Positions 4,456 to 26,599 of a stretch of 64,000 bases of DNA are shown here, piece by piece (position 1 is the first letter of the stretch; every line of letters begins with the position of its first letter). The notes under the pieces were generated by a model. That model ran no database searches and was not told the origin of the DNA. It worked only from the letters and a program-made list of their open reading frames with translations. The stretch is from the IMG/VR virus record IMGVR_UViG_3300045988_073112; one strand, written 5' to 3'. Both the position numbers and the translations under genes were made by a program. Source of the DNA: a virus.

Positions 4456-4481
4456 AATATGTATTGAAAGGACGTAAAGGA

Positions 4482-5600: not shown

Positions 5601-5626
5601 AAATAGCCCTCGTAAGAGGGCTATAT

Positions 5627-5702: not shown

Positions 5703-5778
5703 ATTCATTGTTGCAGCAATGTTTATCATATATATGAGAAAACCGAGAGAGCTTAACACCTGCAAGTGTTCTGCCTAA

Positions 5779-5809
5779 CCCCTGTCATTCGTGACAGGGG
5801 TTTCTTTTT
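5779..5809 (+). terminator. rho-independent terminator
   Basis: CCCCTGTCATTCGTGACAGGGG hairpin followed by TTTCTTTTT. Confidence 0.6.
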
Positions 5810-5934
5810 GTATATGAGCAAGACTGGACCGCGCTCGGTGCAAACGCAAAGTGGCTCTAGAATTTTTCAGGCCAAATATGGCAAAATGATTTGCATTAGT
5901 TTTTATATCTATGTGAGAGGAGGGATTTGTAAGA

Positions 5935-6150
5935 ATGGCTGAATTAGTAGTTCTTAAAGGTTCTTTTGCCAATCTCAATAATATTCCAATTAAAGAAGGT
6001 TAGTTGATCTTTACAACAGACGAGGATAATCGTTTGATTTTTTTAGATACTGATGACAGTACCAGAGTATAGATAACTTCTCCAGCAATTGAGAATACTG
6101 ATACAATCATTTTAGATGCTGGCGGCGCTCCTGCAACAATAGGAGGTTAA
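5935..6150 (+). CDS. small tail-fibre-like protein (71 aa) with the conserved fibre N-terminal motif; two in-frame TAG codons
   Basis: RBS GAGAGGAGGGA. Reads MAELVVLKGSFANLNNIPIKEG[TAG]LIFTTDE..STRV[TAG]ITSP. The first TAG sits where fibre N-termini carry the E/Q of the L-x-E-G-E/Q-L-x-F-x-T-D motif. Confidence 0.5.
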
Positions 6151-6155
6151 AATAT

Positions 6156-6668
6156 ATGGCTATTAAAACATTTGAAGTTGTTTTTAAGTTACGCCGCGAC
6201 AATGATTACAATTACGAGAAGGTAAAAGATAGTTTTATTCCCAAAAAAGGAGAAATCTGTTTAGTAGATACTGCTAGACAAGGTCTTTGCGTAATTGTTG
6301 GTGATGGTGTATCAACTTATGGAAGTCTTGAGTATGAGAATACTATCTTCCAACGCGTTTATTTCATTGGCGGAAAGATTTTCAAGGATGCTGATGGTAT
6401 TTAGGAAATCACTCCTAATGAAAATAAAATTTATATTGATGCCAATAACACCAACGACTTGTATTATTACAATGGCGTTGAGTTTGTTTTAATTGGGCCG
6501 GGTTCGCTTCCGACCGCGTCAGCGGAAACCGCAGGTATTATGAAACTTTACTCTACCACTGGAGAGAATGTGGATGGTACAATGACGCAAAAAGCGATTA
6601 CAGATGAACTGAACACTAAGGTTAGTGCTTCAGTTAATTTAGAAGATGAAACTGTCGTCTTCAAATAA
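6156..6668 (+). CDS. tail-fibre / head-fibre-like protein (170 aa); one in-frame TAG at 6403
   Basis: RBS AGGAGG. N-terminal KKGEICLVDTARQG fibre motif. Track ORFs 6156..6404 and 6459..6668 are the same frame joined by TAG. The downstream part SAETAGIMKLYSTTGEN..TQKAITDEL is a classic fibre motif. Confidence 0.55.
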
Positions 6669-6691
6669 TCTATTTAGGAGGAAATCTAATT

Positions 6692-7909
6692 ATGCCTATT
6701 TTTGATCCTAAGAATATCCCTGTGATTTCTAAGCTTACAATCGGTGATAAGACTTATTACTTAAAGGATGCCGAGGCTCGTGAGCTACTTAAGACTCTTG
6801 GCACCGCTGCTAAGAAGGATGTCGCCGCTGGTGTTGGCGCTGATGAGCAGGGCCTTGTTACTGGTGCTCAGGTTCAGGCTGCTATTGCTGGCATTTCTGG
6901 TTCCATGCACTTCCGTGGTGTGTTCACTTCAACTGCAGAAGTTACTGACCCAGCTGCTGGCGATGTAATTATTGTTGGTGTTAAGGAGTATGTGTATGGC
7001 GGAGATCCTGCTGATTGGCACGAGCTTGGCGATGAGACCCTTTATGCTCTGAAGACTATCACCATTGGTACTCAGAATCTTTCTGCTAATATCAATCTTG
7101 ATACTCTTGCTAAGGATATGGGTCTTGGTGCTCTTTCCAAGAAAGATAGCGCGACTGGTACAGTTGCAGGCCAGACCATTACTGGCTTGAAGGCCAAGGG
7201 TAACGCTGCTGGCTCTATTGCTGTTGAGCTGACTCAGACTTCTACTGCTGCTACCTTAACTAAGAGTGACTATACTCCCTCCGGTGATGTAACGGGTTCT
7301 GTTACCGCTGCTGGTACTGTTTCTATTGCTAAGGATGCCGAGAATGGTACTCAGATCTCTGGTTCTGTTTCTGCTCCTAAAGTGACTGTTACTCCTGCTA
7401 CCGACACTATTAAGAAGGTTACTTCTGTTGGTACTCTGCCTACCAAGGCTGCTGATACCTTTACTCCAAATGGTGATGATACCTTTACCGCTGGTTCTCA
7501 GGCTGCTTGGAGTGCTAATGTTGATGAAAAGAGCGAGACTCTGAGCTTCTCCTTTACCGCTAATGCTCTTCCCACCTTTACTCAGGGCGCTAAGGCTTCT
7601 TACACAGAAGGCGCTTTCGATGGTGGTACGCTTCCTGAACTGGCTGCTACTGGTACTACTGTTGTTACTGGTATTACTAAGGCCGAGGCTTCTGCTCCTA
7701 CCTTTACTGGTGATAAGTTTGCTGCTTCCTTCACTGGAGCTTCTGCCGATATTACTGCTACCTTTGCTGGTGAAAAGACTTCTGTTGTTTCTGGTGTTAA
7801 CTATGATAAGGCTGGTGTTGATGCCGATAAGACCAAGTTTACTGCTGGTGCAATTGAACTTGCTGTTGATGATGTCGTTGTTACTGAGAAGGAAGTTACC
7901 GTACAGTAA
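6692..7909 (+). CDS. fibre-like structural protein (405 aa), Thr/Ala/Gly-rich, N-terminal YYLKDAEAR motif
   Basis: RBS TAGGAGG; long low-complexity T/A/G/S-rich ORF typical of phage fibres and decoration proteins; TAA stop. Confidence 0.65.
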   Translation: MPIFDPKNIPVISKLTIGDKTYYLKDAEARELLKTLGTAAKKDVAAGVGADEQGLVTGAQVQAAIAGISGSMHFRGVFTSTAEVTDPAAGDVIIVGVKEYVYGGDPADWHELGDETLYALKTITIGTQNLSANINLDTLAKDMGLGALSKKDSATGTVAGQTITGLKAKGNAAGSIAVELTQTSTAATLTKSDYTPSGDVTGSVTAAGTVSIAKDAENGTQISGSVSAPKVTVTPATDTIKKVTSVGTLPTKAADTFTPNGDDTFTAGSQAAWSANVDEKSETLSFSFTANALPTFTQGAKASYTEGAFDGGTLPELAATGTTVVTGITKAEASAPTFTGDKFAASFTGASADITATFAGEKTSVVSGVNYDKAGVDADKTKFTAGAIELAVDDVVVTEKEVTVQ

Positions 7910-7962
7910 TCTAGCACTAGCGAGCTAAATGCTCGTTTATGAAAATAAAGGATGGTGAGTAA

Positions 7963-8433
7963 ATGGCGAATAAGTACATTTCTAATGTAGAACTCGGCAG
8001 TACCATTTACTCCCTTAAAGATGAAGAGGCAAGAGCCGCGGTCAATGCCTTGCAAACCGCGGTTTCTTCTTCTTTAGTCTTTAAAGGTGTCGTCTCTAGT
8101 GCTGCCGATCTTACCGGTCTAAAGGATTATAAAGTCGGTTGGACATATAAAGCCAATGCATCTTTCGAAATTGCTTCCCTGGGCAAGCTCGAAGTAGGTG
8201 ATATGATTATATGTATCAGCGATTATAGTTCTAGCTATAAAGCAAGTGACTGGACAGTAGTTCAAAACAATGTAGATACTATGACTGGGGCTTCCTCTAC
8301 GGCCGCGGGCACGAGAGGTCTAGTACCAGCACCTCAAGCTAATGATAACGAGAAGTATCTTCGAGGCGATGGAACATGGGGTTCTCCCGTCGCTGATGTT
8401 GCTTGGGGAAATTTCAATGATTTAATAGGATAA
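7963..8433 (+). CDS. tail-fibre-like protein (156 aa)
   Basis: N-terminal YSLKDEEARAAV motif shared with 6692..7909. C-terminal GLVPAPQANDNEKYLRGDGTW matches the phage tail-fibre ...KFLRGDGTW motif. Confidence 0.65.
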   Translation: MANKYISNVELGSTIYSLKDEEARAAVNALQTAVSSSLVFKGVVSSAADLTGLKDYKVGWTYKANASFEIASLGKLEVGDMIICISDYSSSYKASDWTVVQNNVDTMTGASSTAAGTRGLVPAPQANDNEKYLRGDGTWGSPVADVAWGNFNDLIG

Positions 8434-8461
8434 GCCAAATGGCTTATCCTATTTTTTTTTG
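8427..8461 (+). terminator. rho-independent terminator
   Basis: GATAAGCCAAATGGCTTATC hairpin plus a T9 run. Confidence 0.6.
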
Positions 8462-8601
8462 CATTTTTTCAAAATATATTGTATTATATGTATATAAGAT
8501 AAAAGAGGAAAGACCTTTTCCCAAAATAAAAGCACAGTTTGAAAATAATTAAAAATTATATTATAATATATATAGTAAATGAGAAAAAGGAGTTATAAGT
8601 T

Positions 8602-8934
8602 ATGTATCCGATTGAGAAGTATAAGTTTTATACCAATGGTTCTCGCGTAATTGCAGTTTCTACCTATGCAGGCAAGACTGTGCGAGGTGTTGCAGTTTGC
8701 CACGCTGGTGATACATTCTCTCTGGAAAAGGGTAAGAAGCTCGCTGCTCTGCGGTGCGCAGAGAAGATTGCCAAGAAGCGTGTTGCCCGTGCCAATCAAA
8801 AGGTTGACGAGGCCTATTGGGCGTATGTCGATGCGGAGGCTTATCTCGATAAGATGGTCGATTATAAGGACGATGCCCTCTATGAGTTGAACGAGGTCAT
8901 CGCTGCCAAGAACGATATGCTTGACAGTCTGTAA
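8602..8934 (+). CDS. hypothetical protein (110 aa); paralogue of 32932..33396
   Basis: RBS AAAAAGGAG; shares the G.TV.G.AVCHAGD.FS..KGK..A..RA..K core with the 32932 gene. Confidence 0.55.
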   Translation: MYPIEKYKFYTNGSRVIAVSTYAGKTVRGVAVCHAGDTFSLEKGKKLAALRCAEKIAKKRVARANQKVDEAYWAYVDAEAYLDKMVDYKDDALYELNEVIAAKNDMLDSL

Positions 8935-8971
8935 GAAAGTATCCTGAGCAAGATATAAAACTGCTCTATTC

Positions 8972-9065
8972 GGAGGATTAACCCTAATTGGCAAGGGAGC
9001 GGTCCTGAAAACCGCCAGTAACCGTGAACAACGGCGTAAGAGTTCGAGTCTCTTATCCTCCGCCA
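8972..9065 (+). tRNA. tRNA-Ser (anticodon UGA), type II
   Basis: Acceptor GGAGGAT/ATCCTCC, 3-bp D-stem CCC/GGG, anticodon stem GCGGT/ACCGC with loop CCTGAAA, long variable arm, T-loop TTCGAGT, CCA. Confidence 0.65.
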
Positions 9066-9095
9066 ACGAATTAGACGAGAAATAGGAGGTAAAAG

Positions 9096-9452
9096 ATGGA
9101 CGCTTTAGAATTTCTAAAGGAGCGCAAAAGAATGTGCAGTTACTACAAGGAGTGCGACGGGTGCGAACTTAAAGGGGTCAAATGTAGCATTGGCAACTTC
9201 GTAACTGATGAACATTACAGTAAAATCATTGCTACCGTTGAACAATGGTCGAAGGATCACCCGTGCAAAACGCGACAGAGTATATTTCTGAAGCAGTTCC
9301 CAAATGTCAAGTTTGACTCAAAGGGAATAATTGACATTTCACCGTGCCAAGTGGACCAGAAGCAATATCCACTCAATGGCAAGGATCGCTGTAAATTTCA
9401 GTCTTGCTTCGACTGCCGCCGTGAGTTCTGGATGCAGGAGGTGGAGGAATGA
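9096..9452 (+). CDS. Cys-rich small protein (118 aa)
   Basis: RBS AGGAGG; multiple CxxC pairs; locally elevated GC. Confidence 0.5.
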   Translation: MDALEFLKERKRMCSYYKECDGCELKGVKCSIGNFVTDEHYSKIIATVEQWSKDHPCKTRQSIFLKQFPNVKFDSKGIIDISPCQVDQKQYPLNGKDRCKFQSCFDCRREFWMQEVEE

Positions 9453-9799
9453 AAGATACAAACCTCGTAAGTGCGATAACAGGTAACACGGGTGACAGCG
9501 GATGGAAAGATATGATCCCGCAGGTGGATAGCTCGGACTTCCCTGCACAGTGGATGCCGTCAGCACTTGAGTGCAGCATCATTGATGCGCAGGCAAAAGA
9601 GATCGAGAGGCTGCGGGCGCAGGCGCCCACGGTGCGGCATGGGCGGTGGGACGGAAATGATTGTACCGTATGCAAACTTCCGTGGAATTATAACATGGTG
9701 CAAAATGCAGATGATTGGGGGTATTTTGACCCTATGCCTGACTACTGTCCCAACTGCGGGGCAAAGATGGACGGAGGTGCTGACAATGCCTGCTTGTAA
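9449..9799 (+). CDS. Cys-rich small protein (116 aa)
   Basis: RBS GGAGGTGGAGG; ATGA overlap with the upstream gene; CTVCK...CPNCG motifs. Confidence 0.45.
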   Translation: MKDTNLVSAITGNTGDSGWKDMIPQVDSSDFPAQWMPSALECSIIDAQAKEIERLRAQAPTVRHGRWDGNDCTVCKLPWNYNMVQNADDWGYFDPMPDYCPNCGAKMDGGADNACL

Positions 9800-10028
9800 A
9801 GCCTGTGGTGAGTGGTTTGCCAAAACCAATCCACATGAAGAACTTTGTTTCAAATGCGAGTATTCGTTGCATAGGTTGTCCAGCTATGTTGCCCGTGTGG
9901 TACGGTGCAAGGACTGCATCCATTGCACACACACAACAGATCGTGACGACTCTGGGCTATTTTGCGGAGGATGGCATCGGGTGCAACCCGATGACTTTTG
10001 CAGTTACGGCAAGAAAAAGAATGACTAA
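9786..10028 (+). CDS. Cys-rich zinc-ribbon protein (80 aa)
   Basis: RBS GGAGGTG before ATG 9786; CKACGEW..CFKCEY..CKDCIHC motifs. The track ORF 9567..10028 is an over-extension of this gene. Confidence 0.4.
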   Translation: MPACKACGEWFAKTNPHEELCFKCEYSLHRLSSYVARVVRCKDCIHCTHTTDRDDSGLFCGGWHRVQPDDFCSYGKKKND

Positions 10029-10137
10029 GTAGTTCTGGACTATTTACAATGGAAGCAAGAACTGAGAAATTTGCAAAAATATAAATATTATGATATAATA
10101 TTTATATAAAGTAAGGGAAGAACTTCTTCTCTTATAT

Positions 10138-10224
10138 GCCCAAGTAGAAGAACTGGTATATTCAGCAGGCTCAAACCCTGCCGGTCATTGACCACTGTGG
10201 GTTCGAATCCCACCTTGGGTACCA
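10138..10224 (+). tRNA. tRNA-Leu (anticodon CAA), type II
   Basis: Acceptor GCCCAAG/CTTGGGT, anticodon stem GCAGG/CCTGC with loop CTCAAAC, long variable arm, T-loop TTCGAAT, CCA. Confidence 0.8.
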
Positions 10225-10320
10225 GTGGCGCCGGCTATCGCGTAATACCGGATAATCAAAGAGGTATCGGTTGAAGATGGTTCGAAACATCCAGATCTTA
10301 TGGCCTCCGCCATGCCAAAT

Positions 10321-10407
10321 GCGAACGTAGTCAAGTGGTTTAAGACCCCGGCCTGCAAAGCCGTGTGACCCGTAAGGGCGTGAGTTCGAATCTCACCGTT
10401 CGCTCCA
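10321..10407 (+). tRNA. type II (Ser-like body) tRNA with anticodon loop CTGCAAA (anticodon GCA, a Cys codon reader on a long-variable-arm scaffold)
   Basis: Acceptor GCGAACG/CGTTCGC, 3-bp D-stem GTC/GAC, long variable arm GTGACCCGTAAGGGC, T-loop TTCGAAT, CCA. It differs from the Ser-GCU loop CUGCUAA only at position 36. Confidence 0.55.
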
Positions 10408-10488: not shown

Positions 10489-10602
10489 CTATATGGCGGA
10501 GGTAGGGAAGTGGTTAAACCCAACGGAACCGAAAAGATAAGGTCTAGAATCTAATCTCCCTTGTCCAAGGGAGCAACTAAAAATCAAAAGGAGATTGATA
10601 CG

Positions 10603-12093
10603 ATGAATACTTTTATGAACGCTATGAAGCAAGATACCAACTTTACCTTGACTGAGAATGGCGCAGTTACCCATAAGTCCACTCTGAATGGTCTTATGGA
10701 TTTGTTTGCGCTCGGTGGAGCATACCGCACTCGTTCTGATGCGGATTGCATCACTCTGTTCAAGGCAGCGTTTGACGAGGATGAAGCCCATGCTCTGAAG
10801 TGCCTGTTCTACCTGCGCGATGTGCGCGGCGGTCAGGGCGAGCGTCGTTTCTTCCGCGTTGTGACCAACTGGCTCGCTTCTCACGAGACTGAGGCTATGC
10901 GTCGTAACCTCCAGTTTGTGCCTGAGTACGGTCGCTGGGACGATCTGTATATCTTTGTTGGCACTCCTCTGGAGAAGGATGCTTTCAATCTGATGCGCCA
11001 TCAGCTGGCTTTGGATGTCTCTTGCAAGACTCCTTCTCTGCTTGCTAAGTGGTTGAAGTCTGAGAATACCAGCTCTAATGAATCTCGCCATCTGGCGGTG
11101 ATTACCCGCAATCACTTCGGCATGACTGCTAAGCAGTACCGTAAGACTCTCTCTACTCTGCGTGAGCGTATCCGCATTGTCGAGCGCCTCATGTCTGAGA
11201 ATCGTTGGGACGAGATTGAGTTCGACAAGATTCCTTCTCGCGCCGGCGTAATCTATCGCAATGCGTTCGCTCGCCGCGATATGATTAAGGCTAAGTATGA
11301 GGCTTTCGCTAAGGATACTGAGACTAAGGTTAACGCCAGCGCTCTTTATCCTCACGACATCGCACATCGTGCCTTTGAAGCCAATCGTAAGGGATTGGGC
11401 GATCCCGACCGTCTGATGCTTCAGAAGTATTGGGAGAACCTTCCTAACTACTACGGTGATAATGTCGAGAATGGCATTGCTGTTGTCGATGTTTCTGGCT
11501 CTATGGCCGGTGTTCCTATGGAGGCTGCGGTTTCCATGGGTGCGTACATCGCTGACAAGGCTCATGGCCCCTTCGCTAACCACTTCATTACCTTCTCTGG
11601 TAACCCTGAATTAGTGAAGTTCGAGGGCGCAGATATCACCGATAAGTTGTGCCGCTGCATCGGCGCAGATTGGAGTATGAACACTAATGTCGAAGCTGTC
11701 TTCGATATGCTGCTCAACACCGCAATGAAGCAGGGCGTAAAGCCTGAGGATATGCCCACTCGCGTCTATATCTTCTCTGATATGGAGTTTGACCACTGTG
11801 TTACCAGTAACTCTGCTGGTCAGCGTGGCTGGGGTTACGGTATGCGCAGCGATGCTATTCAGACTCTCTTTGAGGCTATGAAGGCTAAGTGGGCACGCTA
11901 CGGTTACAAGATGCCTAGCTGCATCTTCTGGAACCTGAACGCCCGCAATAACAACATTCCTGCGATTGGTGATGGCTTTAGCTACGTAAGCGGCTTTAGC
12001 CCTGTCATGATTCAGCAGATTCTCAGCGGCAAGGACGGACTCGATCTGATTCTTGAGAAGCTGGACAGCGAGCGTTACGCTCAGATTCACTAA
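10603..12093 (+). CDS. von Willebrand factor A (vWA) domain protein with a TROVE/DUF2828-like N-terminal region
   Basis: MIDAS motif VVDVSGSMAG. ATG 10603 with RBS AAAGGAG preferred over the upstream TTG in the track. Confidence 0.7.
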   Translation: MNTFMNAMKQDTNFTLTENGAVTHKSTLNGLMDLFALGGAYRTRSDADCITLFKAAFDEDEAHALKCLFYLRDVRGGQGERRFFRVVTNWLASHETEAMRRNLQFVPEYGRWDDLYIFVGTPLEKDAFNLMRHQLALDVSCKTPSLLAKWLKSENTSSNESRHLAVITRNHFGMTAKQYRKTLSTLRERIRIVERLMSENRWDEIEFDKIPSRAGVIYRNAFARRDMIKAKYEAFAKDTETKVNASALYPHDIAHRAFEANRKGLGDPDRLMLQKYWENLPNYYGDNVENGIAVVDVSGSMAGVPMEAAVSMGAYIADKAHGPFANHFITFSGNPELVKFEGADITDKLCRCIGADWSMNTNVEAVFDMLLNTAMKQGVKPEDMPTRVYIFSDMEFDHCVTSNSAGQRGWGYGMRSDAIQTLFEAMKAKWARYGYKMPSCIFWNLNARNNNIPAIGDGFSYVSGFSPVMIQQILSGKDGLDLILEKLDSERYAQIH

Positions 12094-15689: not shown

Positions 15690-15992
15690 ATGGGAAAAAT
15701 TACTCGTCATAGCAAAGAGCGCATTGTTCAGAGGACTGAGGGATGTGAGAGTTTCGCAGAAGCTAAGAAGTTAGCTAAGCAAGCTAAGCGATCTGGTGCA
15801 ACTATAAATCAGTTTCAGAAGTTCCCTAAGTTCTTCTCGTATCTTCAGAACAAGAGAAACCAGACTAATACCTGTTCTATTAGAGTTTATCGAGGCAACA
15901 TTTATATCTGGCGTGGCAAAGATACATTGATTACCGCGCATCCTATCCCCGAAAGATATATTAAAGAAATGGAGGCTATTGGCGATGACTGA
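15690..15992 (+). CDS. hypothetical protein (100 aa)
   Basis: RBS GAGAGGAAG; TGA stop. Confidence 0.5.
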   Translation: MGKITRHSKERIVQRTEGCESFAEAKKLAKQAKRSGATINQFQKFPKFFSYLQNKRNQTNTCSIRVYRGNIYIWRGKDTLITAHPIPERYIKEMEAIGDD

Positions 15993-16782
15993 TGTTATGA
16001 GTAGAGTCCATGACCATCTCGATGAAAGTTTGCAGAGGTTTGACGAATCAAGAATCGTCGGTATCTTCTTGCAAGGCTCTCAGAACTATGGTCTTGAAAC
16101 TCCTAAGAGCGATGTTGATACGAAGCTGATTGTTACTCCTACTTTTGATGAAGTGGTTCTTAACAAGAAGCCTATCAGCACCACTCATGTAAGAGCAAAC
16201 AACGAGCATACCGATCTGAAGGATATTCGATTGATGCTCGCCACCTTCCGCAAACAGAATCTCAACTTCATTGAAATTCTCTTTACCCCTTATGCTTGGG
16301 TAAACCCTCTTTTTGAAAGTGAATGGGGTCGTCTGACTGCGGCGCGCGAGCAGATTGCTCACTACTCTCCATATGGCGCAGTTAAGACCATGAAGGGTAT
16401 CGCTATGGAGAAATATCATGCTATGGAGCATGAATATCCTAGCAAATTGGAAGTACTAGCCGAGTATGGCTACGATCCAAAACAGCTCCATCATCTCCTG
16501 CGGGTTCAGGAGTATATCCATAGATACATCAGCGGTGAATCCTATGAAGCGTGCCTGCATCCTAAGCGTCCTGAGTTTCTTGTAGCTGTTAAACAGGGGT
16601 ATTTTAACCTTGAGCAGGCCCGCACTTCCGCGGATGCGGCTATTGCTGACGTAATTGAAACTGCGGACGCCTTCTGTGAAAAAGTTGGTAAGACTTTCGA
16701 TACAGAAGTTGACGAATTGCTTGACGATGTGCAGTATAACATCGTTAAAAGTGCATTGAAAGGAGAAATCTTGAGTGATTAA
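15985..16782 (+). CDS. Pol-beta-superfamily nucleotidyltransferase
   Basis: GS-x9-13-D-x-D signature GSQNYGLETPKSDVD. ATG 15985 preferred over the TTG 15979 used in the track. Confidence 0.55.
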   Translation: MTDVMSRVHDHLDESLQRFDESRIVGIFLQGSQNYGLETPKSDVDTKLIVTPTFDEVVLNKKPISTTHVRANNEHTDLKDIRLMLATFRKQNLNFIEILFTPYAWVNPLFESEWGRLTAAREQIAHYSPYGAVKTMKGIAMEKYHAMEHEYPSKLEVLAEYGYDPKQLHHLLRVQEYIHRYISGESYEACLHPKRPEFLVAVKQGYFNLEQARTSADAAIADVIETADAFCEKVGKTFDTEVDELLDDVQYNIVKSALKGEILSD

Positions 16783-17569
16783 GAATTGGCTTGTCACAGG
16801 AGATACCCACGGTCAAGTCCTTGAAAGACTTAGTCACATTGAGTATCCTCCTGATGAAACTGCGTTGATTATCCTTGGCGATATGGGTCTTAATTTCTAT
16901 CTAAATAAGACCGACCGGAAGAACAAGAGGAATGTCAATGCAACCGGATTCCGCATTTACGCGGTTCGTGGAAACCATGAAGAGCGTCCAGAAAACCTTT
17001 CCATGGAGCAAATGTATGACGAAGACGTCGATGGCGGCGTCTATTATGAGCCAGAATTTCCGAATATCAGATACCTTTTTGACGGAGAGAGCTACAACAT
17101 TCATGACTACTCTGTACTTGTTATCGGCGGGGCGTATTCCGTAGATAAGTGGTATCGACTTAGAGGCCGTCCAGAAGATACAGATAGCTGGACCGGTTGG
17201 TTCAAGGACGAACAGCTAACCAAAAAGGAAATGGATGAAATTGGCGCATGGGTTGAGGGTAAGCGTTACGATTTTGTCCTAACCCATACTTGTCCCATTT
17301 CTTGGGAGCCAAGAGATTTGTTTCTCTCTGGTCTTGACCAATCAAAAGTAGATAAGAGTATGGAACTTTGGCTTGAGGATATCAAAAGCAAAGTTGATTG
17401 GGAAGTCTGGCTCTGTGGCCATTACCATGACGATCGGTTAATCCGGCCGGGCGCAGAAATGTATTTCCATGACATTGAATCTCTTGATACAATTTGGGAG
17501 CGTTGGCAAGACCCTGAGAACATCGACTGGTGGTTAAAGAAGGATCCAAACTACTATATGGGTAAATAA
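16775..17569 (+). CDS. calcineurin-like metallophosphoesterase
   Basis: Motifs GDTHG, GDMG, GNHE. GTG start 16775 with RBS AAGGAG. Confidence 0.7.
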   Translation: MIKNWLVTGDTHGQVLERLSHIEYPPDETALIILGDMGLNFYLNKTDRKNKRNVNATGFRIYAVRGNHEERPENLSMEQMYDEDVDGGVYYEPEFPNIRYLFDGESYNIHDYSVLVIGGAYSVDKWYRLRGRPEDTDSWTGWFKDEQLTKKEMDEIGAWVEGKRYDFVLTHTCPISWEPRDLFLSGLDQSKVDKSMELWLEDIKSKVDWEVWLCGHYHDDRLIRPGAEMYFHDIESLDTIWERWQDPENIDWWLKKDPNYYMGK

Positions 17570-18292: not shown

Positions 18293-18697
18293 GTGATAAC
18301 CATTCGTATCTGGCATCAAAAACTTATTCCCTATCTTGACCGTCAGCGTCTCTTAGGTCAGCATCGAGAATGTGCGGCTCTGAGAGGAAAAGGCTGGGGC
18401 AAGAAGCACGCAACTGTAGACTACGCTTTTACACATGATCCTGCTCTACTTGTCGCTTATCATTATCTGATTATGGACGAGATGGAGAAGCGTGGCTACC
18501 ATCCAGATAAGATTTGGAAGAATCCTAACTGGCGAGGAAGTACATTAGGTGAGGATACATGGATTTCTGATTCTAAGTATGAAGAGATTTATGAATCTGC
18601 TAAGCAGGGTAATATGATTTATCCTGAACACGATGATGCTTATTTGCAGGAGTGTATCAATATCCTGCATGAAAAAGGTATCGACATTACGATGTAA
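18293..18697 (+). CDS. pyrimidine-dimer DNA glycosylase (T4 endonuclease V / DenV-like)
   Basis: N-terminus ITIRIWHQKLIPYLDRQRLLGQHRECAALR resembles the T4 DenV N-terminus ([28 protein letters not shown]). GTG start with RBS AAGGAAG. Confidence 0.5.
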   Translation: MITIRIWHQKLIPYLDRQRLLGQHRECAALRGKGWGKKHATVDYAFTHDPALLVAYHYLIMDEMEKRGYHPDKIWKNPNWRGSTLGEDTWISDSKYEEIYESAKQGNMIYPEHDDAYLQECINILHEKGIDITM

Positions 18698-19184: not shown

Positions 19185-20453
19185 ATGGCGTATTTTGGTT
19201 TGGTAACTAAATTGCAGAACTGTCGTAAGGACGAGAACTCTGATCGTCTGTATCTGGCAGATTGCTTCAATGAGGGCGTTATCGTCGGCCCCGATATGAA
19301 GACCGGCGATCTGGTTCTGTACCTGCCGACCGATGGTCAGGTCGATCATTGGTTTGGCGATAAGTTTACCTTGTTCCGCAAGAATGAGGACGGTACTGAG
19401 CAGGGTGGATACTTGGAAAACAATGGTCACGTGCGGGCTATTAAGCTCCGCGGTAACGAGAGTTCTGGTATCGTTATCTCTCTTGAACGTGTCTATGAAA
19501 TTTTCGGCAATCAGCATTGGAAGAACGGAGATAAGGTAAATACCATCAATGGCAAGGAGTTCTGCCGCAAGTATATCCCTAAGCGCAAGACTCCGAGCAC
19601 TACTCCTAAGACTTCCTACAAGGGCCGTAAGGCAGAGGGTATTACCTATCCTGAGTTTGCGATGCATACTGACACTGAGCAGCTTGCATACAATCTGGAT
19701 AAGTTCCGTCCCGGCGACGAGTTGAACATGACCCTCAAGATGCATGGCACTTCTCAGCGTTCTATGAATACCTTTGCTGAGCTGCCCAATGGCTTCTTCC
19801 GTCGCCTGTTCCATATGAAGAAGCGTCTGAAGCAGGCTTATGTTCTCGGTACTCGCCGCTGTGTTGTAACTGAGAACTCTCAGGGTTACTACGGTAACGA
19901 TCTGTTCCGTATGTCTCACCATGAAGCGCTGAAGCCTCATCTTGATCCCGGTATGGAGGTCTTCTACGAGGTAGTAGGTTACTACGGCCCCTCTGAGGGT
20001 GATACCATCATGCCTATCGGCGATAACTCCAAGCTGAAAGATAAGGCTTTTCAGAAGCTATTCGGTAAGAAGTCTATCTTCTCCTACGGCTGCAAACCCG
20101 GTGAGTCTCATATGTGGATTTACCGCATCACTTCCGAGAATGGCCAGCGCGAGTGGACTCCTGACGAGATTACTGCTTGGTGCGAGAAGCACGGCTTTAA
20201 TCGTGTCCCTGTAATCGAGAACTTTAAGTTCACTACCGCTGAGGATCTGCAGGACCGCATCAACAAGTATTTCGAGGACTTGGTTGACCCTATCGGCAAG
20301 ACTCATGTTAAAGAGGGCGTTGTGGTTCGTATCGTCAACCGCCGCACCTTCACCGCTTTCAAGTCTAAGACTTACGAGTTCAAAGTGCTTGAGGGCATCA
20401 TCAAAGAGACTGAAACCGCGCCGGATATGGAGGAGGCACAGGACGAGGTATGA
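19185..20453 (+). CDS. RNA ligase, Rnl2-like nucleotidyltransferase
   Basis: Motif I lysine in LKMHGTS (T4 Rnl2 KIHGTN); an N-terminal OB-like region; RBS AGGAGGAG. Confidence 0.6.
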   Translation: MAYFGLVTKLQNCRKDENSDRLYLADCFNEGVIVGPDMKTGDLVLYLPTDGQVDHWFGDKFTLFRKNEDGTEQGGYLENNGHVRAIKLRGNESSGIVISLERVYEIFGNQHWKNGDKVNTINGKEFCRKYIPKRKTPSTTPKTSYKGRKAEGITYPEFAMHTDTEQLAYNLDKFRPGDELNMTLKMHGTSQRSMNTFAELPNGFFRRLFHMKKRLKQAYVLGTRRCVVTENSQGYYGNDLFRMSHHEALKPHLDPGMEVFYEVVGYYGPSEGDTIMPIGDNSKLKDKAFQKLFGKKSIFSYGCKPGESHMWIYRITSENGQREWTPDEITAWCEKHGFNRVPVIENFKFTTAEDLQDRINKYFEDLVDPIGKTHVKEGVVVRIVNRRTFTAFKSKTYEFKVLEGIIKETETAPDMEEAQDEV

Positions 20454-21008: not shown

Positions 21009-21048
21009 AAGAGACTCTTACCTAGTTGGTAAGAGTCTCTTTATTTTT
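21009..21048 (+). terminator. rho-independent terminator
   Basis: AGAGACTCTTACCTAGTTGGTAAGAGTCTCT hairpin plus TTATTTTTAT. Confidence 0.7.
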
Positions 21049-21102
21049 ATAATAATATATTATATAATATATATAAAGAATGAGGAAAGGAGTTTTCTAT
21101 AT

Positions 21103-21627
21103 ATGCAGAAAATTCTAATTGTAGTTGATATGCAGAACGACTTCGTAACAGGACCTCTCGGTTCTGAAGCCGCACAGGTGGCTGCGAAGAATATTGCTGC
21201 ACATATCAATGAATATGACACGGTAATTTTCACCCGTGATACCCACGGCCCAGATTATCTGGATACATTAGAAGGAAAGTTCCTACCAGTTCCGCATTGT
21301 ATCAAGGATACTGAAGGATGGGAGATTATCCCTGAACTCGTTAATGAAGTTTCCAAGGTGAAGAATCTCTACGTCGTCGATAAGGATACCTTTGGCACTT
21401 TCATTTGGGGAAGTATGTCTGTAAATATGTCAGTAGATGAAGATACTACCATTGAAATTTGCGGCGTATGCACCGACATTTGTGTAGTGTCCAATGCTCT
21501 TATCATGCGGACTTTTCGTCCTAACCAGAAGATCGAGTGTCATAAAGACTGGTGCGCTGGTACGAGTATTGCAGCACATGAAGCAGCTCTTAAAGTTATG
21601 GAATCTTGCCAGATTGAAGTTATTTAA
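21103..21627 (+). CDS. isochorismatase-family hydrolase, probably a nicotinamidase (PncA-like)
   Basis: Catalytic triad context VVDMQNDF..K..CGVCTDICV. Confidence 0.7.
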   Translation: MQKILIVVDMQNDFVTGPLGSEAAQVAAKNIAAHINEYDTVIFTRDTHGPDYLDTLEGKFLPVPHCIKDTEGWEIIPELVNEVSKVKNLYVVDKDTFGTFIWGSMSVNMSVDEDTTIEICGVCTDICVVSNALIMRTFRPNQKIECHKDWCAGTSIAAHEAALKVMESCQIEVI

Positions 21628-21638
21628 GGAGGCTTAAT

Positions 21639-22472
21639 ATGCTATTTGTTCGCTCTAGAATGGGTTTTGAGGATAAAACCTGGATGCCAGTTAGTCAAGA
21701 TCGATTTCCAGATGGAACGCTGCACATGACTGCTCCTAAAGATTCCTTATTTAAGAACTCTAATGTCGATATCTACTGGAAGTATAACAATGATGCAGAA
21801 TTGTTCTCGCTAATTTGCTTGCGGAAACACTACGCTGATTGTAAAAATGTCACACTTTATATGCCCTATTGTCCGCACGCCCGCATGGATAGGGTTAAGG
21901 GCACAACCGATGTATTCACTCTCAAGAGTTTTGCAGATGTTATCAACTCTCTTGATTTCACCAAGGTGGTTATCTATGATGCCCATAGTAATGTAACACC
22001 TGCGCTAATTGATAGAGTGGAAAATCGTCCGAATACTATGTTCGTTGAACGCACTTTACTCGATATCGGAGACGATAATCTTGTCATGTATTATCCCGAC
22101 GAAGGGGCTATGAAGAGATATTCTGAGAATTGCCAGCGCCCTTATAGCTTTGGCATGAAGCGCAGAAATTGGGAGACTGGCAAAATCCTCGGCGTAGATA
22201 TTATCAATAGAGAGATTGTGAAAGACAAGAATATTCTCATCGTTGATGATATTTGCTCTAAGGGTGGAACATTCTATCATTCTGCGCAGGCTCTAAAAGA
22301 CGCGGGCGCCGCAGATATTTACCTCTTTATCACTCACTGCGAGGATTCTATTTTCAAAGGTAGCCTACTCGAAAGTGGCTTGATTAAGCACATCTACACC
22401 ACTGATTCGTTGGGTCATGACATTCTCTTTAACAAGCAAATTACGGTTTACAAACTACAAGAAATCATTTAA
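21639..22472 (+). CDS. ribose-phosphate pyrophosphokinase family protein (divergent Prs; could be an ADP-ribose pyrophosphate synthetase of the NARP1 type)
   Basis: YMPYCPHARMDR resembles Prs IPYFGYARQDRR. PRPP-binding ILIVDDICSKGGTF. RBS AAGGAGG. Confidence 0.7.
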   Translation: MLFVRSRMGFEDKTWMPVSQDRFPDGTLHMTAPKDSLFKNSNVDIYWKYNNDAELFSLICLRKHYADCKNVTLYMPYCPHARMDRVKGTTDVFTLKSFADVINSLDFTKVVIYDAHSNVTPALIDRVENRPNTMFVERTLLDIGDDNLVMYYPDEGAMKRYSENCQRPYSFGMKRRNWETGKILGVDIINREIVKDKNILIVDDICSKGGTFYHSAQALKDAGAADIYLFITHCEDSIFKGSLLESGLIKHIYTTDSLGHDILFNKQITVYKLQEII

Positions 22473-22489
22473 GGAAAGGAATTGATACA

Positions 22490-24211
22490 ATGTTTAATCC
22501 TCTTTTGATGATTGACTTTTATAAGAGTACCCATCATGAGCAGTATCCCGTGGGACTAACCAAGATGGTTAGCTACTATACTCCTCGTATGAGCCGCCTT
22601 AAAGATGTAGACAAGGTAACTTTGTTCGGTTTACAGGCTTTTATTAAGGAGTATCTCATTGAGGGTTTTAACGATAACTTCTTTAATCGTCCAGAGGAGG
22701 AAGTCGTCGCAGAATATGAGCGAGTTCTCAACGCTACTCTCGGTCCAGGTGCATTTCAGTCTGAGAAAATTAGAGACTTGCATCGACTGGGCTATCTTCC
22801 TCTGGAAATCTCTGCTGTCCCTGAAGGCACTAGAACTACGATCGGCGTCCCGCAGATCGAGATTACCAACACTCACCCCAACTTCGTTTGGTTGGTGAAT
22901 ACTATTGAGACCCTTCTGTCTGCCACCATGTGGCATACGCAGGTATCTGCGGAAGTCGGCTATCGGTATCGTCAGATTGTGCAGAAATATCACGATATAA
23001 GCTGCGATGATAATGTTCCTGTAGCTCGATTGCTTGGCGACTTCTCTATGCGTGGTCAGCAGTCTGCGGAATCCGCAATTAAGAGTTCTGCGGGCTGGTG
23101 TCTATCTTTCCTGAACACCGCGACTGTTCCTGCAATTATGTGGCTTGAGAAGAACTATAATTGCGACTGCGCTAAGGAACCTGTTGCTTACGGCGCAATC
23201 TCTACCGAGCATAGTGTTATGTGCTCTAACTACGCGATTGATGGTAACGAAATTACCCACATCCGCAGACTTCTGACAGAGATTTATCCTCACCACAATT
23301 TTTCTATGGTGTCTGATAGTTACGACTATTGGAATCTCGTAGAGAAAATTCTCCCGCACTTGAAAGATGAAATCATGGCACATGACGGTTGTCTTTCTAT
23401 CCGTGGTGATAGCGGCGACCCTGTTGAGATTATCGCAGGTAAGGAAATCATCTATCTCGACGAGCAGGAGTGGGAGAACCTAAAAGATGATCCAAGTGAG
23501 TTCATTGCTGAGTTCTTTGAGCGGGACTTGGATAAGGATACTCAGCAGATTTTCTCTTACAATGGAGAATATGCTCTCGCTGACATTACAGTCGAATGGA
23601 CTAATGAGCGCGGCGCTTGGACTGATTGCAAATATTGGTACATTGAGGGTTATAATGTCAAACTGATTGAAAACTATGAGCTTACTTCCGAGGATAAGGG
23701 AACTGTCTGGTGCCTGTGGGACATTTTCGGTGGAACCATCAATAGCAAAGGTTATAGGGTCCTTGATCCTCACATTAAAGCTATCTATGGTGACAGTATT
23801 ACTCCTCAGCGTTGCGCTCGTATTTATCAACGCCTTGAGAATAATGGATTTGCTATTAACAATGTTTCCCTTGGTGTTGGCTCTTTCTCCTTTATGTGTC
23901 TTGAGGAAGATGGCAGCTTCAATCCTTACACTCGTGATACCTTTGGTATTGCTGTTAAGGCAACTTACGCGGAAGATGCAAATGGTAAGCCTATTATGAT
24001 TTACAAGCAACCCAAGGCTCTTAGTTGGAAGAAGTCTCAAAAAGGTTGCTGTCGAGTAGCTCTTGATGGTCAGAGTTATGAAGATGAACTAACTTGGGCA
24101 GATCATCTTGGTGAAGATAATCTGCTTCAACCTGTATTCCGTGATGGCAACATGATTAAAGAGGACACTTTGCACGATATCCGTGCACGGTTGTATAAGG
24201 AGGGTTTCTAA
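22490..24211 (+). CDS. nadV: nicotinamide phosphoribosyltransferase family protein (Nampt/NadV-like; could be a Namat-type enzyme)
   Basis: N-terminus MFNPLLMIDFYKSTHHEQYP resembles the Nampt ..DSYKVTHYKQYP; 573 aa; RBS AAGGAAAGGAA. Confidence 0.75.
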   Translation: MFNPLLMIDFYKSTHHEQYPVGLTKMVSYYTPRMSRLKDVDKVTLFGLQAFIKEYLIEGFNDNFFNRPEEEVVAEYERVLNATLGPGAFQSEKIRDLHRLGYLPLEISAVPEGTRTTIGVPQIEITNTHPNFVWLVNTIETLLSATMWHTQVSAEVGYRYRQIVQKYHDISCDDNVPVARLLGDFSMRGQQSAESAIKSSAGWCLSFLNTATVPAIMWLEKNYNCDCAKEPVAYGAISTEHSVMCSNYAIDGNEITHIRRLLTEIYPHHNFSMVSDSYDYWNLVEKILPHLKDEIMAHDGCLSIRGDSGDPVEIIAGKEIIYLDEQEWENLKDDPSEFIAEFFERDLDKDTQQIFSYNGEYALADITVEWTNERGAWTDCKYWYIEGYNVKLIENYELTSEDKGTVWCLWDIFGGTINSKGYRVLDPHIKAIYGDSITPQRCARIYQRLENNGFAINNVSLGVGSFSFMCLEEDGSFNPYTRDTFGIAVKATYAEDANGKPIMIYKQPKALSWKKSQKGCCRVALDGQSYEDELTWADHLGEDNLLQPVFRDGNMIKEDTLHDIRARLYKEGF

Positions 24212-24636
24212 TGAACGATCCATTCCTTGATATCAATAGAGTAGTTGATAGACTCTATAATGAATATAAGCGATATGGTGATATTATTATCGCCTTCGAC
24301 TTTGATTACACGGTTCATAACTTCCGTGATGAAGATTATACCTATGAGCGTGTAAGTGAAATGTTGCGGAAGTGGCAGCCTTACGCCAAACTCGTGGTAT
24401 TTAGTGCCTCTCAGGAGGAGCGGTATCCCTATATCGCAGATTATCTCAATCAGAATAACATTCCTTTTGATGCAATCAATGAGGATGTCCTGACTGAGAA
24501 GCGTAAACCAACGAGAAAGCTGTACTACAATATTCTGCTTGATGATAGAGCAGGACTTGGTAGTGCTTATGCGGCTCTAGATATGTTATATAATAGACTA
24601 GAAGCAGAAGGAGAACTGAAAACATGGAGAACGTAA
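24211..24636 (+). CDS. HAD-like phosphatase (141 aa)
   Basis: DxDxT motif in AFDFDYTV; ATG overlaps the upstream TAA. Confidence 0.4.
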   Translation: MNDPFLDINRVVDRLYNEYKRYGDIIIAFDFDYTVHNFRDEDYTYERVSEMLRKWQPYAKLVVFSASQEERYPYIADYLNQNNIPFDAINEDVLTEKRKPTRKLYYNILLDDRAGLGSAYAALDMLYNRLEAEGELKTWRT

Positions 24637-25385
24637 TTACCAATATCACTAATTGGATTAAGGATTACTTCGTAAATAATGGTCCAGATTGCAAAGCTAT
24701 CATTGGTATTTCTGGTGGCAAAGATAGCACTGTAACTGCGGCTCTGCTTGTTAAAGCGCTCGGAAAGAATAGGGTTATTGGTGTAAAAATGCCGCAGGGT
24801 AATCAGCATGACATTGATGTTGCCAATAAAGTAATTGACTATCTCGGTATTGATAGTTATGAGGTTGATATCGACGAAGTTTGCAAATCTCTGTATAATG
24901 CTATCGACATTGGCTATAATTTTGAAGGCTCGGTCGAAAGCATTCCACAGATTGCCTCTAATTCCCCAGCCCGCATCCGCATGGCCGTTCTTTATGCGAT
25001 CGCCGCACGTGAACATGGTCGGGTAGCAAACACTTGCAATAGGAGCGAGGATTTTATTGGCTATTCCACTAAGTTCGGAGACGCTGCTGGTGATTTCTCC
25101 GTGCTGTCTGAATATACAGTTTCAGAAGTGCGGCAGATTGGTAAAGCCCTTGGTATCCCTAACGAGTTTATCTTTAAAGCGCCAGAAGATGGTCTTAGTG
25201 GCAAGACAGATGAAGATAATCTTGGATTTACCTATGATGAACTCGATAACTTCCTACTGCAAGGACATTATCCATCTTATGATGTTTATAAGAACATCGA
25301 AGAACGACATAAGCGTAATCTTCATAAGATAAATCCAATGCCTTCTTGCCCTAGATATTATTCAACCTGCGATTACGTTGTATAA
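24624..25385 (+). CDS. nadE: NH3-dependent NAD+ synthetase
   Basis: PP-loop GISGGKDS; typical length 253 aa. Confidence 0.8.
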   Translation: MENVITNITNWIKDYFVNNGPDCKAIIGISGGKDSTVTAALLVKALGKNRVIGVKMPQGNQHDIDVANKVIDYLGIDSYEVDIDEVCKSLYNAIDIGYNFEGSVESIPQIASNSPARIRMAVLYAIAAREHGRVANTCNRSEDFIGYSTKFGDAAGDFSVLSEYTVSEVRQIGKALGIPNEFIFKAPEDGLSGKTDEDNLGFTYDELDNFLLQGHYPSYDVYKNIEERHKRNLHKINPMPSCPRYYSTCDYVV

Positions 25386-25718: not shown

Positions 25719-25859
25719 ATGGATTTATTTTCACTACTTGAGAATCTCAAGCTTGATCTTGAATGGGCAGAAGCTAATGAGTGGGTAGCTCCAATTTGTC
25801 TTGCTGACGATTTGCAAGAAACTATTAAAATCATTGAAAAGGAGATGGAAGAATAATGG
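25719..25859 (+). CDS. small hypothetical protein (46 aa)
   Basis: RBS AAGGAGG; ends in ATAATG overlap with the next gene. Confidence 0.3.
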
Positions 25860-26599
25860 CTACATATGCGTGCTCTGATTTGCACGGTAGATTGGATCTA
25901 CTGAAGCAGATTCAGGATTTCTTACAACCCGATGATACGGTTTATTTTCTCGGCGATGCCGGAGATAGAGGCCCTGAGCCTTGGGAAACTATCAAAGCAG
26001 TCGCTCAGGATAAGCGTTTCATTTATCTAAAAGGCAACCATGAAGATATGCTGGTAAAAGCCATGGAAGATGAAGTGCGGAGAGAAGGATGCGGAGTACT
26101 TGGGAAAAACTTTGCTTTGCTTTCTCAAAATGGCGGTGGAGAAACTTTCCTTGACTGGCTTTTAGAGCCAATGAAAACTGGATGGTGGAATTATCTCAAG
26201 AAACTACCAACCTATAAGAAATATGTAAATGAACAGGGAATCACTATTCATCTCTGTCATGCTGGCTTTAATCCAATGCAGAACGATGCTATCCCTAATG
26301 ACGATGATCTACTTTGGGATAGATGCCATTGGCACTCTAAGGAGCCTATTTTTGATGATAAAGAGATTTGCGTGCATGGCCATACTCCTATTCCATATCT
26401 GTTAAAACGAAATAATTGGAGCGATGAAATTCCAGATTGGGATGGTGGAGCTTGGTGGTATGCACAAGACCATAAAGTTGATTTGGACTGTGCAAGCTGG
26501 TATACTGGTTATACTGTGTTGTTAGATTTAGACAGCTTTGATGAACATATCTTTAGTGCTACCGACGCAATTGACCTTTCTAAGAAGGAGGAATGGTGA
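25856..26599 (+). CDS. Ser/Thr-phosphatase-like metallophosphoesterase
   Basis: DLHGR, GDAGDRGP, GNHE motifs. Confidence 0.65.
   Translation: MATYACSDLHGRLDLLKQIQDFLQPDDTVYFLGDAGDRGPEPWETIKAVAQDKRFIYLKGNHEDMLVKAMEDEVRREGCGVLGKNFALLSQNGGGETFLDWLLEPMKTGWWNYLKKLPTYKKYVNEQGITIHLCHAGFNPMQNDAIPNDDDLLWDRCHWHSKEPIFDDKEICVHGHTPIPYLLKRNNWSDEIPDWDGGAWWYAQDHKVDLDCASWYTGYTVLLDLDSFDEHIFSATDAIDLSKKEEW

Follow-up and report, generated by a model that had tools for sequence, protein, structure and literature searches.

A NARP1-related phage operon that combines a switched Namat base pocket with nicotinamidase and NAD synthetase genes: a candidate deamidated route to NAD+

Introduction

We describe an NAD+ reconstitution operon in a 64,000-nucleotide stretch of DNA from a gut phage (IMG/VR record IMGVR_UViG_3300045988_073112; the whole stretch is called the window below). 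Its five genes, at positions 21103-25385, encode a nicotinamidase-like protein (PncA), a homologue of the phosphoribosyl pyrophosphate (PRPP) synthetase Prs, a transferase of the Nampt/Namat family, a small phosphatase of the HAD superfamily, and the NAD synthetase NadE. We are highly confident that the locus is an NAD+ reconstitution module of the Adps/Namat lineage. Its chemistry is probably a variant of the NARP1 pathway and not NARP1 as published, because the base pocket of the Namat-like protein is switched and PncA and NadE are its obligate partners. We lean towards the reading that the operon would rebuild NAD+ from ADP-ribose (ADPR) and nicotinamide through nicotinic acid adenine dinucleotide (NaAD). 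We infer every substrate, product, and anti-defence role discussed here, the substrates from residues and gene neighbourhood.

Depletion of NAD+ is one of the most common ways in which bacteria defend themselves against phages; on the phage side, the main metabolic counter-measure known so far is NARP1. The pathway consists of two enzymes, Adps and Namat (Osterman et al., 2024, bioRxiv 10.1101/2024.02.11.579819; structures in PMC12774641). The features of the operon are as follows.

21009..21041, + strand: terminator-like hairpin, 14-bp stem and T-run; end of the preceding unit and 5' boundary of the operon
21026..21053, + strand: sigma-70-like promoter candidate TTGGTA-16-TATAAT, 10/12 matches, consensus match only
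21103..21627, + strand: nicotinamidase-like PncA, 174 aa, Isochorismatase domain PF00857
21639..22472, + strand: Adps-type Prs homologue, 277 aa
22490..24211, + strand: Namat-family transferase with Ala/Ser pocket (A/S-type), 573 aa
24211..24636, + strand: small capless HAD-superfamily phosphatase (predicted), 141 aa
24624..25385, + strand: single-domain NH3-dependent NAD synthetase NadE, 253 aa
25382..25409, + strand: terminator-like hairpin, 12-bp stem and TTTTTT; 3' boundary of the operon, overlapping the stop codon of NadE

Operon structure and assignment to the Adps/Namat lineage

The five contiguous open reading frames (ORFs) reported in a first-pass annotation of this DNA are all present on the plus strand, separated by gaps of 11 and 17 nt and then overlapping by 1 and 13 nt, with the promoter candidate 50 nt 5' of the first start codon. 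They form one tight operon bracketed by terminator-like hairpins. The gene families named in that annotation were recovered as well, four of them by Pfam, PHROG, and NCBIfam scans and the HAD protein by an AlphaFold2 (AF2) model together with its fold and motifs. The adps and namat genes are adjacent, with the 17-nt gap between them; the defining arrangement of NARP1 is a Namat homologue at most 10 genes from adps.

The product of the second gene contains Pribosyl_synth/Pribosyltran domains and matches phrog_619 (E 5e-72). It is 38.6% identical to the Adps of SPbetaL1 (tblastn, E 2e-41), and in BLASTP it scores 157 bits against this protein and 165 bits against the Adps of a Paenibacillus NARP1 locus, versus 60 bits against Prs of E. 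coli. All 11 NCBIfam Prs models leave it below their cut-offs (the best, TIGR01251, with 92 bits versus 113), and its best match to a Prs in PDB has E 1e-12. The active-site Lys162, whose K162A mutation inactivates SPbetaL1 Adps, corresponds to K174 in the motif GMKRRN of the window protein and is invariant in an alignment of five sequences. The earlier description of this gene as a divergent Prs homologue, possibly Adps, is supported by the similarity scores, the Prs cut-offs, and the retained Lys.

The third protein consists of NAMPT_N and NAPRTase domains (phrog_448, E 2e-160). Its top PDB hit in phmmer is 9W5X/9W5W (405 bits, E 4e-120), the crystal structures of SPbetaL1 Namat (PMC12774641), followed by Haemophilus ducreyi NadV (9KE8/9KEO, 335 bits), Xanthomonas Nampt (147 bits), and human and mouse Nampt (about 127 bits). 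Identity to SPbetaL1 Namat is about 47%, and the AF2 model (predicted local distance difference test score, pLDDT, 85.7) superposes best on Namat (TM 0.92, E 4e-47). The second-best hit, 9KE8, was considered as another Namat and rejected, being the H. ducreyi NadV, a true Nampt.

Since the margin of 405 versus 335 bits is only moderate, the assignment rests on a phylogenetic tree, the linkage to Adps, and the clamp residues, and the tree was rooted with an outgroup for the same reason. In this neighbor-joining (NJ) tree, rooted on the NARP2-type Nampts of phi-pp2 (KVP40-like) and RB16, the outgroup is split off with 100/100 bootstrap support, and the window protein is nested within the Adps-linked Namat clade, which includes SPbetaL1, a Felixounavirus related to Bas63, and the crAss-like phage DAC15. 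The catalytic core (in SPbetaL1 Namat numbering, D13, Y15, F189, R192, H245, R306, D308, G360, D361, G390, S391, T398, R399, and D400) is invariant in 86 A/S-type sequences. The first-pass annotation had proposed a NARP1-type pair and suggested phylogenetic placement as the check; both the rooted tree and the Adps scores agree with it, the Namat-like protein lying in the Adps-linked clade and the Prs-like protein being closer to Adps than to Prs. Neither protein clusters with housekeeping Prs or Nampt.

The same observations bear on the reading of the locus as an ordinary Prs/Nampt-type salvage cluster, NARP2-like or housekeeping, unconnected to the defence NADases. The automated names point that way: Pfam, PHROG, and GenBank call the two proteins ribose-phosphate pyrophosphokinase and nicotinamide/nicotinate phosphoribosyltransferase, and the NCBIfam model NF006629 'nicotinate phosphoribosyltransferase' is passed with 438 bits versus a cut-off of 405. 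Yet for NARP1 these annotations have already proved incorrect, the Namat-like protein is set apart from the NARP2 NadV with 100/100 support in the rooted tree, and the Nampts of NARP2 differ in sequence, with Asp-Ala-Arg at the three markers and the non-aromatic motif GMGGGLLQ. No partner NMN (nicotinamide mononucleotide) adenylyltransferase (NMNAT) was found in the window or in the surveyed loci L001-L166. We consider ordinary salvage highly improbable.

Some further features of the Namat-like protein may be mentioned here. It contains an insertion of about 85 aa (residues ~319-402), modelled as two helices and a beta-sheet subdomain (AF2, pLDDT ~93-95) and present in only part of the A/S clade; homologues of about 570 aa from Tsamsa-like Bacillus phages may share it, because their alignment runs unbroken over the full length. 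Members of the protein's 90%-identity cluster (P0001) number 1,684; many are 281 aa long and located on contigs of 140-150 kb. Stop-codon recoding may explain these members in close relatives of the window phage, a suspicion that arises because the related phage Phass-1 uses genetic code 15.

The switched base pocket

In SPbetaL1 Namat, the nicotinamide pocket is formed by Phe189, Arg192, Asp215, Ala242, Arg306, Asp13', and Tyr15'; Asp215 makes a hydrogen bond to the amide of nicotinamide, and Ala242 lines the pocket (PMC12774641). In the window protein, Asp215 is replaced by Ala211 and Ala242 by Ser238, while the rest of the catalytic core is intact, so that the Asp215/Ala242 pocket characteristic of Namat is absent. 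Among 167 aligned Namats, this A/S pocket occurs in 86/86 members of one group and in 0/79 aligned members of the other, termed D/E-type; the remaining two of the 81 sequences in the latter group (L165 and L166) contain a stop codon and were aligned as Gln. Positions 215 (Ala) and 242 (Ser) are the only named pocket positions switched in every A/S-type sequence, that of Phass-1 included. A third switch, Gly356 to Lys or Arg, is found in the phage clade and not in its Clostridium relatives.

The position concerned is informative in related enzymes. The amide is recognized by Asp219 in human Nampt and by Asp203 in Xanthomonas Nampt; this Asp is reported to set the specificity for nicotinamide versus nicotinate, and nicotinate phosphoribosyltransferases have Ser there (PMC4442680, PMC7096376, PMC10907753). 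From these residues, the window enzyme is probably not a canonical nicotinamide-using Namat.

In SPbetaL1 Namat itself, the D215A mutation decreases nicotinamide-dependent NAD+ synthesis 8.1-fold (PMC12774641). That the loss is not total agrees with another explanation of the operon, canonical NARP1 with helpers, in which the Namat would still make NAD+ directly from nicotinamide and ADPR pyrophosphate, or would accept both bases, and PncA and NadE would boost salvage through host PncB and NadD in parallel. The intact catalytic core and the conserved Arg of the SCL (R40 of SPbetaL1, R36 in the window protein), which stacks in SPbetaL1 and is Arg in 85 and Lys in one of the A/S-type sequences, fit this explanation too. 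We consider it rather unlikely, for the reasons given in the next section.

The other binding region that differs is the SCH adenine-clamp motif. In the window protein this motif is GSFSFMCLEEDGSFNPYTRD, which in aligned form reads GSFSF-MCLEEDGSFNP-YTRD versus the consensus GSXΦXΦXΦTRD. F466 keeps position 3 aromatic, whereas position 7 is displaced by a 9-aa insertion. The insertion lies in the clamp-helix region (residues 467-479), is modelled as a beta-hairpin (AF2, pLDDT ~73-77), and occurs in 84/86 members of the window clade. A canonical clamp motif and the A/S pocket occur together in Phass-1 (GAYTYQYVTRD) and in Clostridium zeae (GSYTYQYNTRD).

One subclade of Namats has Glu at the amide-binding position and the gene order Namat-HAD-Adps (L252, which is DAC15, MT074136.1; L116-L135; and L158). 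In DAC15, a cultured crAss-like phage, the Namat, HAD, and Adps genes are all annotated as 'hypothetical protein'.

Pocket type and accessory genes

The pocket type was compared with gene content in 80 IMG/VR loci closest to the window protein, 80 loci closest to SPbetaL1 Namat, and GenBank relatives; each locus was scored with tblastn for its pocket residue and for neighbouring genes up to 10 kb away. The loci were collected by an alignment search; a single-protein query returned only relatives with 93-99% identity, and a listing of proteins homologous to the Namat-like protein contained close relatives alone (65-99% identity) and no outgroups.

All 86 A/S-type loci carry NadE, 80 carry PncA, and 83 carry Adps, whereas the 81 D/E-type loci (Asp or Glu) include none with NadE, none with PncA, and 77 with Adps. 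Of the six A/S-type loci in which PncA is missing, four have no upstream flank, and the other two, L043 and L080, are flanked by the full 10 kb. Scanning bacterial genomes, one for each species, added 80 loci, all of the A/S-type and again with PncA, Adps, and NadE, bringing the total to 247 (86 A/S-type, 81 D/E-type, and 80 from bacterial genomes and metagenome-assembled genomes, MAGs). The linkage to PncA and NadE as a general trait of NARP1 was rejected, as neither gene is found in any of the 81 D/E-type loci. Fisher's test for the association of pocket and genes gives p ~1e-40 to 1e-50, values not corrected for phylogeny.

Because most of the bacterial A/S-type loci come from MAGs of gut and rumen Clostridia (Lachnospiraceae, Oscillospiraceae, Ruminococcus), the phages with this module seem to have Clostridia of the gut and rumen as hosts. 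The Adps-PncA-Namat(A/S) set is also present in four Clostridium isolate assemblies, in two of them on megabase-sized contigs. These loci are from C. zeae (L234), C. folliculivorans (L247), Clostridium sp. LS (L197), and C. tagluense (L178); in the last one, a HAD-like match and NadE lie beside Adps-PncA-Namat.

At least nine gene orders occur with the content of the module unchanged. Phass-1, a gut phage that uses code 15, shares the order of the window, PncA-Adps-Namat-HAD-NadE, at identities as low as 33-46%. Among 50,697 phage records, homologues of NadE were counted in 50, of PncA in 13, and of Adps in 1,532. The 13 PncA records are Phass-1, uncultured phage contigs from human feces, and fragmentary contigs labelled as Listeria, Staphylococcus, or Enterococcus phage; among the PncA-carrying records, the module itself was confirmed only in Phass-1 and MT835544. 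A megablast search of these 50,697 records with the cluster gave no match. It is a solid observation that NadE and PncA, which are rare in phages, have been retained in the A/S lineage over deep divergence and repeated rearrangement.

Canonical NARP1 with helpers leaves this pattern unexplained: both replacements, Asp215 to Ala and Ala242 to Ser, are present in each of the 166 PncA/NadE-linked loci and in 0/81 others. Moreover, a Namat that uses nicotinamide would have to share its substrate with the phage nicotinamidase, PncA homologues are as rare as stated above, and the operon lacks PncB and NadD, though Bacillus phage G carries both. In favour of this explanation, phages without NARP1 such as cyanophages and pelagiphages also carry NadE, so NadE can be of use alone.

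In the trees, the main A/S clade is monophyletic with 99-100/100 support, and the main clade together with the Clostridium group with 99/100. Phass-1 joins the main A/S clade in 1/100 replicates of the rooted tree and in 36/100 of an earlier one. This placement could reflect a second, convergent origin or long-branch attraction; the pocket switch may have had two origins, one in the main clade and one in Phass-1.

The first and last enzymes: PncA and NadE

The Preiss-Handler route begins with PncA and ends with NadE. The PncA-like protein belongs to the Isochorismatase family (PF00857, E 9e-22), and its nearest PDB entries are nicotinamidases and pyrazinamidases (1IM5, 3S2S, 3PL1, 2H0R, and 3O90). 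Across 80 loci, conservation is at least 97% for both the catalytic triad D9/K94/C123 and the metal site D46/H48/H65. The score of 27 bits is below the NCBIfam equivalog cut-off of 174, and we therefore regard the protein as a divergent member of the nicotinamidase family.

NadE is assigned by NAD_synthase PF02540 (E 8e-49) and by TIGR00552 (166 bits versus a cut-off of 64). It consists of one synthetase domain, with no glutaminase domain, and the PP-loop S30-G-G-K-D-S35 is conserved in 85 loci. Its PDB matches are NH3-dependent NadE enzymes, the best being 3FIU (116 bits), followed by Pyrococcus NadE (107 bits). We take 3FIU to be the Francisella NMN synthetase, presumably preferring nicotinic acid mononucleotide (NaMN) over NaAD. 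An enzyme of this Francisella type, which amidates NaMN, is known (PMC3376133).

This match opens the way to a route through PRPP without recycling of ADPR: the Prs-like protein would make PRPP, the Namat-like enzyme would act as a nicotinate phosphoribosyltransferase and form NaMN from nicotinate and PRPP, NadE would convert NaMN to NMN as in Francisella, and an NMN adenylyltransferase of the host would complete the synthesis. SPbetaL1 Namat can use PRPP when ADPR pyrophosphate (ADPR-PP) is absent, and the SCH insertion could weaken adenine recognition. We find the PRPP route quite improbable all the same. The Prs-like protein groups with characterized Adps, which gave no product with ribose-5-phosphate/PRPP chemistry, and fails the Prs cut-offs; the margin of 3FIU over Pyrococcus NadE is small, and a short archaeal-type NadE has proved to be a genuine NAD synthetase that lacks NMN synthetase activity. 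No NMNAT gene occurs in the window or in loci L001-L166, and in Phass-1 and C. zeae the A/S pocket goes together with a canonical aromatic adenine clamp. Finally, the path to NMN would be a long detour, given that Nampt needs a single step for it.

A candidate deamidated route and the points against it

In the reading that we favour, with NaAD as the intermediate, the operon would take up ADPR and nicotinamide, which are at once the products of the defence NADases and its own inputs. PncA would hydrolyze nicotinamide with water to nicotinate and NH3, and Adps would convert ADPR and ATP to ADPR-PP and AMP. The A/S-type Namat, having lost the amide-binding Asp and gained Ser238, would join nicotinate and ADPR-PP to give NaAD and pyrophosphate (PPi). 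NadE would then produce NAD+, AMP, and PPi from NaAD, ATP, and NH3; in principle it could re-use the NH3 released by PncA, as release balances consumption. Formation of NaAD in this direct way would bypass PncB and NadD.

The gene content agrees with such a bypass. A tblastn search with the phage G proteins detected neither PncB nor NadD in the 64-kb window or in loci L001-L166, and a scan for NMNAT/nucleotidyltransferase motifs, with a pattern that detects the phage G NadD, was negative in the same set. In the absence of PncB and NadD near the operon, Adps and the A/S enzyme occupy the place of these two enzymes.

Several points weigh against this reading. The replacement of Asp by Ala removes a charge repulsion and alone is no proof of nicotinate binding; in addition, the paper on the human nicotinate phosphoribosyltransferase states that nicotinate specificity requires further determinants. 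The 9-aa clamp insertion makes the use of ADPR-PP less certain in the window enzyme than in its Phass-1 and Clostridium relatives. The top PDB match of NadE is the presumably NaMN-preferring 3FIU, by a small margin over Pyrococcus NadE. The search for PncB, NadD, and NMNAT covered 64 kb of a genome of roughly 145 kb. As the A/S clade is monophyletic, the Fisher p-values overstate independence, and the A/S switch, PncA, and NadE may trace to one or two evolutionary events. Lastly, this route consumes one more ATP than canonical NARP1 does and has no evident selective advantage. Possible ideas for this extra ATP are that diffusible nicotinamide is trapped as an anion, that the hosts deamidate it fast, or that the pathway becomes irreversible.

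Taken jointly, the proposal is that the A/S-type enzymes are nicotinate ADP-ribose transferases, that they form the center of a host-independent and widespread deamidated NARP1, and that the HAD protein represents a second phosphatase family; we hold this combination to be an even bet. The deamidated NARP1 would then be widespread in phages of gut and rumen Clostridia, with thousands of metagenomic sequences, and would also occur in Clostridium chromosomes.

The HAD phosphatase and the Macro domain

The 141-aa protein encoded between Namat and NadE has no Pfam match and no significant sequence match in PDB. Its AF2 model (pLDDT 92.9) is most similar in Foldseek to the capless HAD phosphatase BT_0820 (2OBB; probability 1.00, TM 0.56/0.64), followed by SCP/CTD, lipin, and T4 PNKP phosphatase domains. 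The HAD motifs D30-x-D32-x-T34, K103, and D111-D112 are invariant in 47 homologues, and the match to the NCBIfam BT0820 family is weak (22 bits versus a cut-off of 165). From the model and the motifs, the protein is predicted to be a capless HAD phosphatase. The label of PHROG 1238, phosphoheptose isomerase, was rejected on the basis of the HAD motifs and the fold.

In 70/86 A/S-type loci, the slot between Namat and NadE is taken by a Macro-domain gene (PF01661, in sister loci such as L001), and the HAD and Macro genes hardly ever co-occur. The HAD gene occupies the slot in the window and in 10 other A/S-type loci, and it is found in 11/81 D/E-type loci; no match to the Macro domain was obtained in the window operon. 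These D/E-type loci include that of the Bacteroides phage DAC15, whose gene DAC15_102 encodes a HAD homologue with 36% identity; another homologue lies in an operon of Paenibacillus psychroresistens (L167, CP034235, 2794813-2807217) with the order NrtR-HAD-Adps-Namat-PnuC-kinase. The latter is a bacterial NARP1 in what appears to be an operon for NAD salvage, with a NUDIX/NrtR-like regulator, a PnuC-like transporter, and an AAA_28 kinase-like protein.

The Macro-domain protein Adpp of NARP1-AP is an ADPR-1''-phosphate phosphatase that lets NARP1 overcome aRES (bioRxiv 10.64898/2026.01.28.702374). By analogy, we infer that the HAD protein is a second phosphatase family serving NARP1, unrelated to Macro. 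Like Adpp, it would probably return a phosphorylated form of ADPR (ADPR-1''-phosphate or a breakdown product of ADPR-PP) to ADPR.

Genomic surroundings

The rest of the window is the replication or early region of a large phage, with genes for topoisomerase II, DNA polymerase, a DnaB-like helicase, primase, ligase, the anaerobic ribonucleotide reductase NrdD, and RNA repair. A tmRNA is located at 50-395 of the window (tag peptide DNNYFDSHMAA), followed by 16 tRNA genes at 401-10407; for one of them, at 4383-4456, the anticodon is called as four bases, 'taaa'. RNA-repair-like genes surround the NAD operon at 15979-17569, 19185-20453, 25856-27324, and 27958-28794. The set comprises an RlaP-like nucleotidyltransferase, three calcineurin-like metallophosphoesterases, an RNA ligase, and a Thg1-like tRNA-His guanylyltransferase, and it may counter tRNA-cleaving defences. 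Further accessory genes encode a DUF2828/DUF7788 protein (10561-12093), a DenV-like pyrimidine-dimer glycosylase (18293-18697), an SPFH/flotillin-like protein (31256-32752), and a PIN-PhoH fusion (33549-34922).

Significance

If the proposed route is true, it includes a new enzymatic reaction, the synthesis of NaAD directly from ADPR-PP, and it explains why the rare pair of nicotinamidase and NAD synthetase is welded to NARP1 in many gut phages. In that case, a two-residue signature (Asp to Ala and Ala to Ser) would predict base specificity in the Nampt/Namat family. The HAD phosphatase is flagged as a second accessory of NARP1, and it is available in cultivable systems, namely phage DAC15 and Paenibacillus and possibly Clostridium tagluense, where it is a tblastn match only. 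More generally, automated labels such as 'Prs', 'Nampt', or 'hypothetical' hide functions of the NARP1 type.

The NARP1 papers that we searched contain no mention of NadE, nicotinamidase, or nicotinic acid, and full-text searches combining NARP1 with these three terms gave no linking paper among the matches listed. Within the literature searched, the PncA/NadE-linked A/S-type module and its HAD accessory are undescribed, and the reaction of nicotinate and ADPR-PP to NaAD and PPi is in no paper found.

Comparison with known systems

Other phage or cellular pathways of NAD+ synthesis invite comparison besides NARP1 itself. Among them are NARP2, which consists of Nampt/NadV and Nmnat (KVP40), and NARP3, which consists of PnuC and NadR (PMC13464706). 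They share with the window operon the restoration of NAD+ by phage-encoded enzymes, and NARP2 also has a Nampt-family enzyme. However, the NARP2 enzyme is an outgroup in the tree, keeps the amide-binding Asp, lacks the aromatic clamp, and needs an NMN adenylyltransferase. NARP3 was dismissed as a relative, its proteins being unrelated.

The Preiss-Handler pathway (PncA-PncB-NadD-NadE) shares the entry nicotinamidase and the exit NH3-dependent NAD synthetase. A full phage-encoded set is found in Bacillus phage G (L168, NC_023719.1, 200-208 kb), with an isochorismatase-type PncA, PncB, NadD, and NadE; the same locus also holds a NUDIX hydrolase and a KptA-like RNA 2'-phosphotransferase. In the window, Adps and a Namat-family enzyme stand in place of PncB and NadD, and the ribosyl-adenylate part of the product would derive from ADPR instead of PRPP and ATP.

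NARP1-AP resembles the window locus in that the NARP1 core is extended by a phosphatase gene within the operon. The slot holds a HAD gene in the window instead of Macro, and NARP1-AP as described has neither PncA nor NadE.

The closest system is NARP1. The adjacent, co-directional pair of Prs-like and Nampt-like genes, the Adps Lys, the Namat catalytic core, and the SCL Arg are shared with it. In contrast to NARP1, the window Namat has the Ala/Ser pocket, the 9-aa SCH insertion, and the additional domain of about 85 aa; pairs of the window type are always accompanied by NadE and nearly always by PncA; and the predicted product of the transferase is NaAD and not NAD+. The locus is thus best filed as a variant of NARP1 that departs from it in the nicotinamide-pocket feature of Namat.

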